DNA of 64,000 bases from Methanocellales archaeon (GTDB taxonomy: Archaea; Halobacteriota; UBA148; JAUWXC01): the NCBI GenBank assembly GCA_030018435.1, contig JASEEY010000001.1:83641-147640 (forward strand), read 5' to 3'. The notes beneath the pieces were generated by a model, which worked only from the letters and a program-made list of their open reading frames with translations, did no database searches and was not told the DNA's origin. The position numbers were made by a program, and so were the translations under genes. Below are positions 21,688 through 23,244 of this stretch, one piece after another (position 1 is the stretch's first letter; each line of letters opens with the position of its first letter).

Positions 21688-22644
21688 GTGTATGCGTTGA
21701 AGCAGATCATACACTCTATCTATGATGGATACGAACGCCTACTTGCCAAGGAGGTTATGGAAGGTCCTATTCCGTCGCATATCGCAATTATTCAGGATGG
21801 AAATAGGAGATATGCCGCAAAACTTGGTGAACCTCTACATCATGGTCATATATCTGGGGCTCACACTACTGAGAAGGTCTTGGAGTGGTGCATAGAGATT
21901 GGAGTTAGGCAACTGACCGTTTATACTTTTTCCACCGAAAATTTTCACAGGTCGTATACCGAGAAGGTACAACTCTACAAACTGTTTAAACAGAAATTTG
22001 AAGAAATGTGCACCGATGATAGAGTCCATAATCACAGGGCAAGGGTAAGAGCTGTGGGCAATGTAGAACTATTTCCATGGTGGGTGAGAAAGGCGATCAA
22101 AAAGGTTGAAGAGGTTACTAAGGATTATGATGAATTTTACCTTAACGTAGCGCTGGCGTATGGTGGGCGGCAGGAGATTGTGGACGTGGCAAGGGTAATA
22201 GCCAGAAAAGTTGCTGCTGGAGAATTGAAGGCTGAGAACATCGATGAGAAAACCATATCTGCCCACCTATACCAGGGCAATCCCATCAACGTAGATTTAA
22301 TCATACGCACGGGCGGAGAAAGACGCATGTCTAATTTCCTTCCCTGGCAGGCGAGCGGCAATGAATGCGCTGCCTATTTCTGCGCACCGTACTGGCCGGA
22401 GTTCAGGAAAATCGATTTCCTCAGGGCCATCAGGACATACCAGATGAGAGAACAGGAAAGGCGGCACAACACCGTGCTGAGGGTCGTCAAACTGTTAAGC
22501 GAATGCGGACGTGCTGAGGTTGGAGAGGTAATTGCCATTTCCAAGCGCATACTGAATACGACGAGAGACGATATAATGATGATTTTAAGGTCACTTCCCA
22601 AATCTTCTCTGCCGCCTCTGGAAGTCCCTGATCGCCCTCAATAA
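21688..22644 (+). CDS. uppS: cis-prenyltransferase catalytic subunit (UppS/DHDDS-like) with a C-terminal extension
   Basis: Catalytic motifs [10 protein letters not shown] and [11 protein letters not shown] are present. The C-terminal RxG motif is absent. A ~70-aa extension follows. GTG start. Confidence 0.8.
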   Translation: [318 protein letters not shown]

Positions 22645-23244
22645 GTCCACTTTTCTAAAACCAGACCAGTTAACGTCTGTGAAATAGAGCTCTGAGTAGA
22701 CGGATTGCCATATCAGGAAATCCGTTAGTCGAACTCCTCCGGTTTTGATGATCAGATCCGGCGCCGATTTAAATATTAAATGTGATTCTATCAGCGCTTC
22801 ATTGATGTCGTCGGGTGTCATCTCGCCGCTTTCAACCTCTTGCGCAATTTTCTTTATCGCTTGCGTAAGTTCATATCTCCCGCCATAGCCAATTGAGATT
22901 TCAAGCGATGCACCTGGTTTATCGTGCCTCATTCTCACTTTTTCATTCCCGGTATAAATCGTGATTTCGGCTGGTAGACCGTCCATCATCTTAATCAATC
23001 GTTCCCTCAATTTTGAGCAGAACTGCCTGCCAATTTCCCCAGCATCAATAACGCTGACGTGCATCGTGATCCGCATAATTCCCATCTCGGCACACCAGGA
23101 GGTGATTGCCCTGAGCTTTTTAATATCATCATCCGTTTGCAAATCGTCATCTGCGATAACAAGAAGTATGTGTTGTGGAAGCTCTTCTTTCTTAATCTGG
23201 CTGATAATTCTCCGTTCGTATGGGTCTAGAATAGCACCACTCAT
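22591..23244 (-). CDS. cis-prenyltransferase family, non-catalytic NgBR/Nus1-like subunit
   Basis: UppS fold in which the DGNRR catalytic motif is replaced (LLVIADDDLQTDD). It ends in RRFGK, an RxG motif. It is convergent with uppS and overlaps its 3' end. The track ORF extends to 23346; MSGAIL is the likely start. Confidence 0.65.
   Translation of the reverse strand: MSGAILDPYERRIISQIKKEELPQHILLVIADDDLQTDDDIKKLRAITSWCAEMGIMRITMHVSVIDAGEIGRQFCSKLRERLIKMMDGLPAEITIYTGNEKVRMRHDKPGASLEISIGYGGRYELTQAIKKIAQEVESGEMTPDDINEALIESHLIFKSAPDLIIKTGGVRLTDFLIWQSVYSELYFTDVNWSGFRKVDLLRAIRDFQRRQRRFGK

Follow-up and report, generated by a model that had tools for sequence, protein, structure and literature searches.

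Two convergent, overlapping genes of an uncultured archaeon very probably encode a heteromeric cis-prenyltransferase

The stretch of DNA analyzed here (the window; 64,000 nucleotides (nt), positions 83,641 to 147,640 of contig JASEEY010000001.1) belongs to the assembly of a Methanocellales archaeon, GCA_030018435.1, and carries two cis-prenyltransferase (cPT) genes that converge and overlap at their 3' ends. In all likelihood, the pair encodes an archaeal heteromeric cPT, in which a catalytic chain with a clamp-like C-terminal extension receives its RXG motif in trans from a second subunit, and in which a deletion within the window's clade gave rise to the tail of the catalytic protein and to the gene overlap, most likely as neutral by-products. 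The first committed step of dolichyl/polyprenyl-phosphate synthesis is carried out by the heteromeric cPT, whose two-subunit design ties some Euryarchaeota to eukaryotes. The locus brings no new mechanism. The subunit genes are unlinked in the organisms that have been studied biochemically and linked in several other archaeal orders, and this linkage is independent genomic support for the partnership of the subunits. The features on which the argument is built are listed below, with protein lengths in amino acids (aa).

21688..22644, plus strand: catalytic cPT subunit, DHDDS/MaUPPS-A-type; GTG start, 318 aa
22456..22593, plus strand: C-terminal helical extension of the catalytic subunit, residues 257-302; conserved, without a Pfam family
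22591..23244, minus strand: accessory cPT subunit (MaUPPS-B, with the function of NgBR); ATG at 23244, 217 aa, ending in RRFGK
22591..22644, both strands: 3' overlap of both genes; 54 nt, read directly from the sequence

The open reading frames (ORFs) and the raw sequence agree with the initial annotation, which had described a convergent pair with a 54-nt overlap at these positions. The catalytic gene may start up to 9 nt further downstream than 21688. For the accessory gene, a 251-aa ORF from an upstream ATG at 23346 was rejected, as every homologue begins at the position of the 217-aa form. The offset between 21688 and 22591 is divisible by three, which places both frames in exact codon-antisense register. 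On the plus strand, the overlap reads TCA CTT CCC AAA ... CCT CAA TAA and codes for a 17-residue tail of the catalytic protein; on the minus strand, it reads TTA TTG AGG GCG ... TTT GGG AAG TGA and codes for the accessory C terminus, LLRAIRDFQRRQRRFGK, and its stop. Opposite the accessory TGA stop codon lies the catalytic Ser codon TCA, and the catalytic TAA stop lies opposite an accessory Leu codon, TTA. The strong homology and hundreds of relatives found for both genes mean that both are real and that the overlap is no accident of ORF calling. A tblastn search across all 64 kb found no further cPT paralogue in the window.

The catalytic protein matches PF01255 over residues 35-256 (4.6e-69, Pfam) and scores above the cut-off for TIGR00055 (NCBIfam). 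Its residues were compared in a table in which both window proteins and several relatives were aligned with Escherichia coli UPPS, the reference sequence being verified over residues 134-244 against the HMMER alignment. UPPS residues D26, G27, N28, R30, H43, F70, S71, E73, N74, R77, R194, E198, R200, S202, and E213 are all kept in the catalytic chain, where they correspond to D37, G38, N39, R41, H54, F81, S82, E84, N85, R88, R207, E211, R213, S215, and E226. The sole catalytic residues that are missing are R242 and G244; the position of R242 is occupied by E257, which is Glu family-wide, and no R-x-G occurs in the chain after residue 240. The table therefore bears out the earlier description of a product that has the motifs DGNRRYA (residues 37-43) and FLPWQ (residues 217-221) and lacks RxG. 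Among all PDB sequences, the best match of the chain is human DHDDS (1.4e-46, residues 15-255), with bacterial UPPS at about 1e-41 and the homodimeric archaeal enzyme MM_0014 at 2e-15. Within its own family, matches labelled Methanosarcinales/ANME-2 share 54-56% identity.

The resemblance to DHDDS extends to the fold. An AlphaFold2 (AF2) model of the catalytic chain, built from the family alignment with a mean predicted local distance difference test score (pLDDT) of 84, consists of an N-terminal helix (residues 2-24), the cPT core, a three-helix C-terminal extension, and a low-confidence tail. Near the C terminus, helices are predicted at residues 241-272, 278-289, and 293-302 (pLDDT 83-88), and R265, L270, E277, S285, I299, and L300 of the extension are conserved across the family. 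An extension of ~70 aa had been noted previously; its presence holds, but its length comes to about 62 aa (residues 257-318), of which only residues 257-302 are conserved and structured. In a Foldseek search with the model, the top eight matches are DHDDS chains aligned over 309-315 columns, compared with ~230 columns for ordinary UPPS. The full-length root-mean-square deviation from DHDDS is about 11 Å, meaning that the extension is not superposed, and the phmmer alignment with DHDDS ends at residue 255, with no detectable similarity to the DHDDS clamp beyond that point. In the human complex, DHDDS carries an N-terminal helix as well as a C-terminal clamp, and by analogy the helical extension of the archaeal subunit probably acts like this clamp, stabilizing the heterodimer. 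As a separate observation, the catalytic family has an insert relative to UPPS and DHDDS (residues 221-234) that contains two invariant cysteines, C227 and C232; model confidence is lowest there (pLDDT <50 at residues 221-226).

The accessory protein is a cPT domain over all of its 217 aa, without an N-terminal extension or transmembrane region, and its PF01255 match (3.3e-33) covers the C-terminal half only (residues 82-216). The catalytic residues are lost: UPPS D26, G27, N28, R30, H43, S71, N74, and R77 are replaced by A, D, D, L, a gap, V, A, and I, respectively, and residues 27-39 read LLVIADDDLQTDD. The protein keeps UPPS R200, E213, and R242-x-G244 as R172, E185, and R214-F-G216, followed by the single residue K217, and the IPP (isopentenyl diphosphate)-site residues that it retains are K167, R172, T174, and E185. 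Across 65 accessory relatives, R213 and G216 never vary and F215 varies very little, and the C terminus of the family is invariably R-x-G plus one residue. The best PDB match is E. coli UPPS (1.4e-25, C-terminal half), with RRFG falling on R242-F-G244. The AF2 model (family alignment, pLDDT 81) has a plain cPT fold, and its top Foldseek matches are catalytic cPTs. Model and residue table are in keeping with what had been read from the sequence at the outset, namely a cPT fold with a degenerate catalytic motif and an RRFGK end.

Three further observations concern this family. In peat-bog Methanomicrobia (loci L017-L032 and L049), the accessory proteins end in RRHGL, RRRGL, QRHGL, or KRRGI instead of RRFGK, such that the R-x-G spacing is constant and x is variable. 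One family member of 237 aa (P0053) has its C-terminal ~75 residues duplicated internally and no N-terminal part. Several contigs that carry the archaeal accessory gene (L019, L043, P0245, and P0346) are labelled Bathyarchaeia, Desulfobacteria, Desulfobacterales, or Atribacteria in public MAGs (metagenome-assembled genomes), and these bacterial and Bathyarchaeia labels are probably a result of binning contamination.

The division of labor between DHDDS and NgBR had been proposed as the model for this pair. The split of residues and the likeness to DHDDS stand, but a kinship with NgBR by sequence or fold does not: the match to NUS1/NgBR is weak (E 3e-5), albeit end to end (residues 19-217 against 23-222), and no NgBR chain is found among the Foldseek top 50 for the accessory model. 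The comparisons and the model suggest that the accessory protein is NgBR-like by function, not by sequence or fold, and that it is nearer to ordinary UPPS-type enzymes. The link to CHARACTERISED enzymes was provided by a homologue search seeded with a Methanosarcinaceae accessory member, which recovered Methanosarcina proteins; by cluster look-up, P0375 is WP_011024281.1, the protein named MaUPPS-B/MA4402 in the bioRxiv preprint of Grabinska. BLASTP aligns residues 9-217 of the window's accessory protein with residues 11-224 of MaUPPS-B at 36% identity (E 6e-52), and the RXG-bearing paralogue of Methanosarcina mazei, AAM30779.1, is 40% identical (E 1e-53). A C-terminal ...RDFQKRQRR[FY]GK is common to the Methanosarcina acetivorans and M. 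mazei proteins. On the strength of this full-length homology to MaUPPS-B/MA4402 and its M. mazei counterpart, the accessory protein is, as judged by sequence, a member of the validated MaUPPS-B family.

The same preprint reports that yeast rescue needs both M. acetivorans MaUPPS-A (MA3723) and MaUPPS-B (MA4402), and that mutations in the conserved region of MaUPPS-B alter activity much like the corresponding mutations of the human enzyme. A heteromeric cPT in Methanosarcina, mentioned in the initial annotation, is thus on record, and the window's accessory protein is homologous to one of its two required subunits. Two further archaeal heteromers have been described: MM_0618/MM_1083 of M. mazei, which makes C45-50 products and of which MM_0618 is given as the binding protein in a 2026 review, and Af1219/Af0707 of Archaeoglobus fulgidus.

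A different assignment of roles is conceivable, in which the 318-aa protein would need no partner and work as a homodimeric cPT, and the 217-aa protein would be a pseudo-enzyme engaged in something else, such as lipid binding or regulation. There is a precedent in MM_0014, an archaeal cPT without RXG that is active as a homodimer, and it has to be counted against our interpretation that the absence of RXG alone is no proof of partner dependence; the accessory protein also retains some IPP-site residues and the full cPT fold. However, MM_0014 is only remotely related to the catalytic chain (2e-15, against 1.4e-46 for DHDDS), and the full length of the accessory protein is homologous to MA4402, which MA3723 needs in order to complement yeast. 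Together with the invariant RXG end of the accessory protein and the synteny of the two genes across orders, these findings make a self-sufficient homodimer improbable.

The heteromeric enzyme that we favor would make a C45-C55 polyprenyl diphosphate, from which the glycosyl carrier lipid derives. A complete active site would lie in the 318-aa subunit, with D37-G38-N39-R41, H54, S82, N85, and R88 forming the allylic-diphosphate/Mg2+ site and R207, R213, and S215 the IPP site. The 217-aa subunit would be a catalytically dead cPT paralogue that dimerizes with it. As suggested by the structure of human NgBR/DHDDS, for which the RXG mechanism has been described, the accessory C terminus R214-F-G216-K would thread across the dimer interface to reach the IPP β-phosphate and a Mg2+-bound water. 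In essence, the backbone amides of x-G would bind the β-phosphate, and the Arg would touch the water, as they do in the human complex.

Scanning a single genome of each species with the accessory-family alignment as query yielded 80 loci. In 25 of these, the catalytic gene is found downstream of the accessory gene at a distance of no more than 4 kb, always in convergent orientation. Spacers of +5 to +42 nt were found at seven of the 80 loci (one Halobacteriota single-amplified genome and six Methanoperedenaceae), and longer ones in Argoarchaeum (+177 nt), Haloarcula rara (+205 nt), one Methanoperedens (+926 nt), and one further locus (+3.3 kb). In thirteen MAGs of peat Methanomicrobia/Halobacteriota, inserted genes take up 2.6-2.9 kb between the cPT pair; in L016, the single peat MAG inspected, these resemble cytochrome c biogenesis genes and a MobA-like protein. 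In 'Methanosarcinales archaeon Met12' (L088/L089, 3664..5797), the accessory and catalytic genes are separated by three inserted ones, among them an N6/N4 DNA methyltransferase gene, in what looks like the entry of a mobile element into an ancestral convergent pair. At the Methanosarcinaceae, ANME-1, Syntrophoarchaeum, and Methanocella loci of the scan, no catalytic gene was found nearby. None of the 80 species-level loci has an overlap of the two cPT genes. The conserved feature is therefore convergent linkage, not overlap, and such linkage is, in our interpretation, ancestral in this part of the Halobacteriota. New here is the finding of linked, convergent cPT genes in many lineages, among them Methanoperedens, Argoarchaeum, Haloarcula, and peat Methanomicrobia.

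The closest accessory proteins (81-100% identity) are encoded on contigs of five records, namely Logan SRR23186780 (identical to the window here), NCBI GCA_030610945.1, and JGI 3300029812, 3300033145, and 3300033388. Gene order and relative orientation are the same in all five: RLI/ABCE1 (forward), DUF92 (reverse), accessory (forward), catalytic (reverse), DUF2551 (reverse), and LysRS (reverse). The overlap measures 51 nt in one record and 54 nt in the other four. It is confined to the window's own clade; in the next relatives, at about 60-63% identity, the genes are spaced by +12 and +5 nt. These records also bear on whether the overlap could be an assembly or sequencing artefact, a lost stop codon or small deletion in one MAG. 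The source is uncultured and the accessory protein is a 100% match to a 'Methanocellales archaeon' MAG, as such an error might have it, but the same junction is present in four assemblies from other samples and projects, with sequence differences elsewhere in the junction. An artefact is refuted by these independent assemblies, and we give it next to no weight.

The origin of the overlap can be traced in the catalytic protein. In all relatives, its conserved part ends in ...I-L-x-x-L, and the tail beyond it is short and variable. In members of the window's clade, the conserved end ILRS abuts the accessory stop codon, and the remainder of the protein is the antisense of the invariant accessory C terminus. 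An antisense stop arises wherever the accessory gene uses TTA or CTA for Leu, or TCA for Ser, and the frame runs as far as the first such codon. In the window, this codon belongs to the leading Leu of LLRAIRD, which sets the catalytic stop and gives 54 nt. In GCA_030610945.1, the second Leu codon is TTA rather than TTG, and because of this synonymous difference in the accessory gene, the catalytic stop comes one codon earlier; the catalytic protein is one residue shorter and the overlap is 51 nt. The overprinted tail, which occurs in the window's clade only, is Pro-rich and predicted to be disordered, the block-mean pLDDT of the AF2 model falling from 71 to 49.

We propose that in the ancestor of the clade a deletion of ~45-60 nt took the end of the catalytic gene, with its original tail and stop codon, together with the spacer. 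From then on, translation would have continued through the antisense of the last 17 codons of the accessory gene until the first antisense stop, and a replacement tail of similar length would have been gained passively. This event most likely left both the Pro-rich tail and the 54-nt overlap as neutral by-products, and the conservation of the tail follows from constraint on the opposite strand through dual coding. The overlap would thus be a tidy case of a C-terminal tail made by overprinting the antisense of a highly constrained sequence. Two points weigh against neutrality. The overlap persists in a clade in which accessory proteins share only 81-87% identity, and purifying selection on the overlapping arrangement may conceivably have contributed; the tail is also no less conserved than the remainder of the protein, a fact that dual coding accounts for. 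Separately, the catalytic homologues of Methanoperedens/ANME-2 have a tail ending in a conserved ...IKW or ..VW, with a terminal Trp that is absent from the window's clade. As far as can be told from the alignments, the native tail with its terminal Trp may be functional in Methanoperedens/ANME-2 and dispensable in the window's clade.

It had been suggested initially that the overlap couples the expression of the two genes. As a selected regulatory device, it would provide complementary mRNA 3' ends that couple the mRNA levels of the two subunits and keep a 1:1 stoichiometry, either by transcriptional interference or by duplex-dependent stabilization or cleavage. The presence of the overlap in all five close-relative assemblies is consistent with this, as is the survey of signals around the stop codons. 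A manual survey found no oligo-T run of at least 5 near either stop, and without such runs the transcripts probably run into each other; a T4 run lies 7 nt past the catalytic stop, and the first minus-strand T4 is ~180 nt past the accessory stop. The non-overlapping relatives are also tight, with spacers of 5-12 nt and no terminator. The last observation cuts both ways, however. As sister spacers of this size leave no room for a terminator, an antisense overlap of 3' untranslated regions is probably ancestral and not tied to the coding overlap, which adds nothing specific. The enzyme evidently works without overlapping genes, as none of the 80 species-level relatives has them. In Methanosarcina and Archaeoglobus, the two genes are unlinked, to judge from locus tags. 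The stop codon drifts between 51 and 54 nt with a synonymous Leu codon, and terminator or structure signals are not above chance: a promoter/terminator scan of 21300..23500, which was of bacterial type and not built for archaeal signals, gave counts at or below shuffle expectation. Coupling of expression thus finds no computed support, given also the sister spacers of 5-42 nt; a special regulatory role of the 54 nt is unsupported, and a selected device of this kind is unlikely.

The genes on either side of the pair are also conserved, and they are as follows.

23297..24550, plus strand: DUF92/TIGR00297 polytopic membrane protein (VTE6/COG1836 family); PF01940 1.1e-59, TIGR00297 1.3e-66
23245..23296, no strand: AT-rich divergent intergenic region between the accessory and DUF92 genes, putative shared promoter; 52 nt between start codons
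21379..21684, plus strand: DUF2551 reading frame; PF10826 3.5e-15 on a 54-aa ORF

The DUF92 gene has a Shine-Dalgarno sequence, GGAGG, at 23288, and the 52-nt region (23245..23296) that separates it from the accessory gene is a putative shared promoter region. The divergent DUF92/accessory pair is present in 44 of the 80 species-level loci and in all close relatives, spanning Methanoperedens, Methanocella, ANME-2, Methanotrichaceae, and peat lineages. We take DUF92 to be the COG1836 family of plant VTE6, a phytyl-phosphate kinase. VTE6 has been tied to COG1836 in a review. The pairing of DUF92 with the cPT accessory gene suggests that the protein acts in polyprenyl-phosphate metabolism, and we see in it a candidate for a polyprenyl(-phosphate) kinase of the carrier-lipid pathway.

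On the other side, the DUF2551 frame stops 3 nt ahead of the catalytic gene, a gap that suggests an operon; all close relatives and 13 loci keep it in this upstream position. The window and loci L082 and L083 lack its canonical start: there, ATG has become AAG and there is a 1-nt insertion relative to L084; an in-frame TAG lies just upstream of the frame, at 21376..21378. The DUF2551 homology, of about 100 codons, stays in one frame. The missing start could reflect a non-canonical start, recoding, or a recent pseudogene. Linkage nominates both the DUF92/VTE6-family membrane protein and the small DUF2551 protein as candidate components of the pathway. A bolder extension, by which the layout of the overlap is functional, pairing of mRNA 3' ends sets a 1:1 supply of subunits, and the four genes form a dedicated archaeal glycosyl-carrier-lipid module with DUF92 as the missing polyprenyl(-phosphate) kinase, we regard as unlikely.

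Comparison with known cPTs places the window pair between several systems. It shares with E. coli UPPS and its homodimeric relatives the fold, the catalytic residues, and, in our interpretation, an RXG motif that acts in trans across the dimer. In those enzymes, however, each chain holds both sets of residues, whereas the window pair splits the sets and neither chain has both. Homodimeric enzymes of the MM_0014 type are likewise archaeal and lack RXG, but MM_0014 ends in TLGG, has 219 aa and no extension, and is distant from the window's catalytic chain (E 2e-15). With DHDDS-NgBR (Rer2/Srt1-Nus1) the likeness is closer on the catalytic side: DHDDS is the best match of the catalytic chain in both sequence and fold, and the chain has an N-terminal helix before β1 and, after the cPT domain, a helical extension, albeit one without detectable sequence similarity to the DHDDS clamp. 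The accessory C terminus, R-x-G-K, matches that of NgBR in function. NgBR/Nus1 differs in its membrane-anchored N terminus and strongly degenerate cPT domain, and the window's accessory protein is not of that subfamily. The nearest systems are MaUPPS-A/B, MM_0618/MM_1083, and Af1219/Af0707, which likewise combine a catalytic chain without RXG and a short, soluble, dead cPT paralogue with RXG. The window lineage differs from the organisms of these systems in being an uncultured, 'Methanocellales'-labelled group. The genes of the three systems are far apart, as indicated by locus tags, whereas those of the window pair are adjacent, convergent, and overlapping and sit within a conserved DUF92/accessory/catalytic/DUF2551 block.

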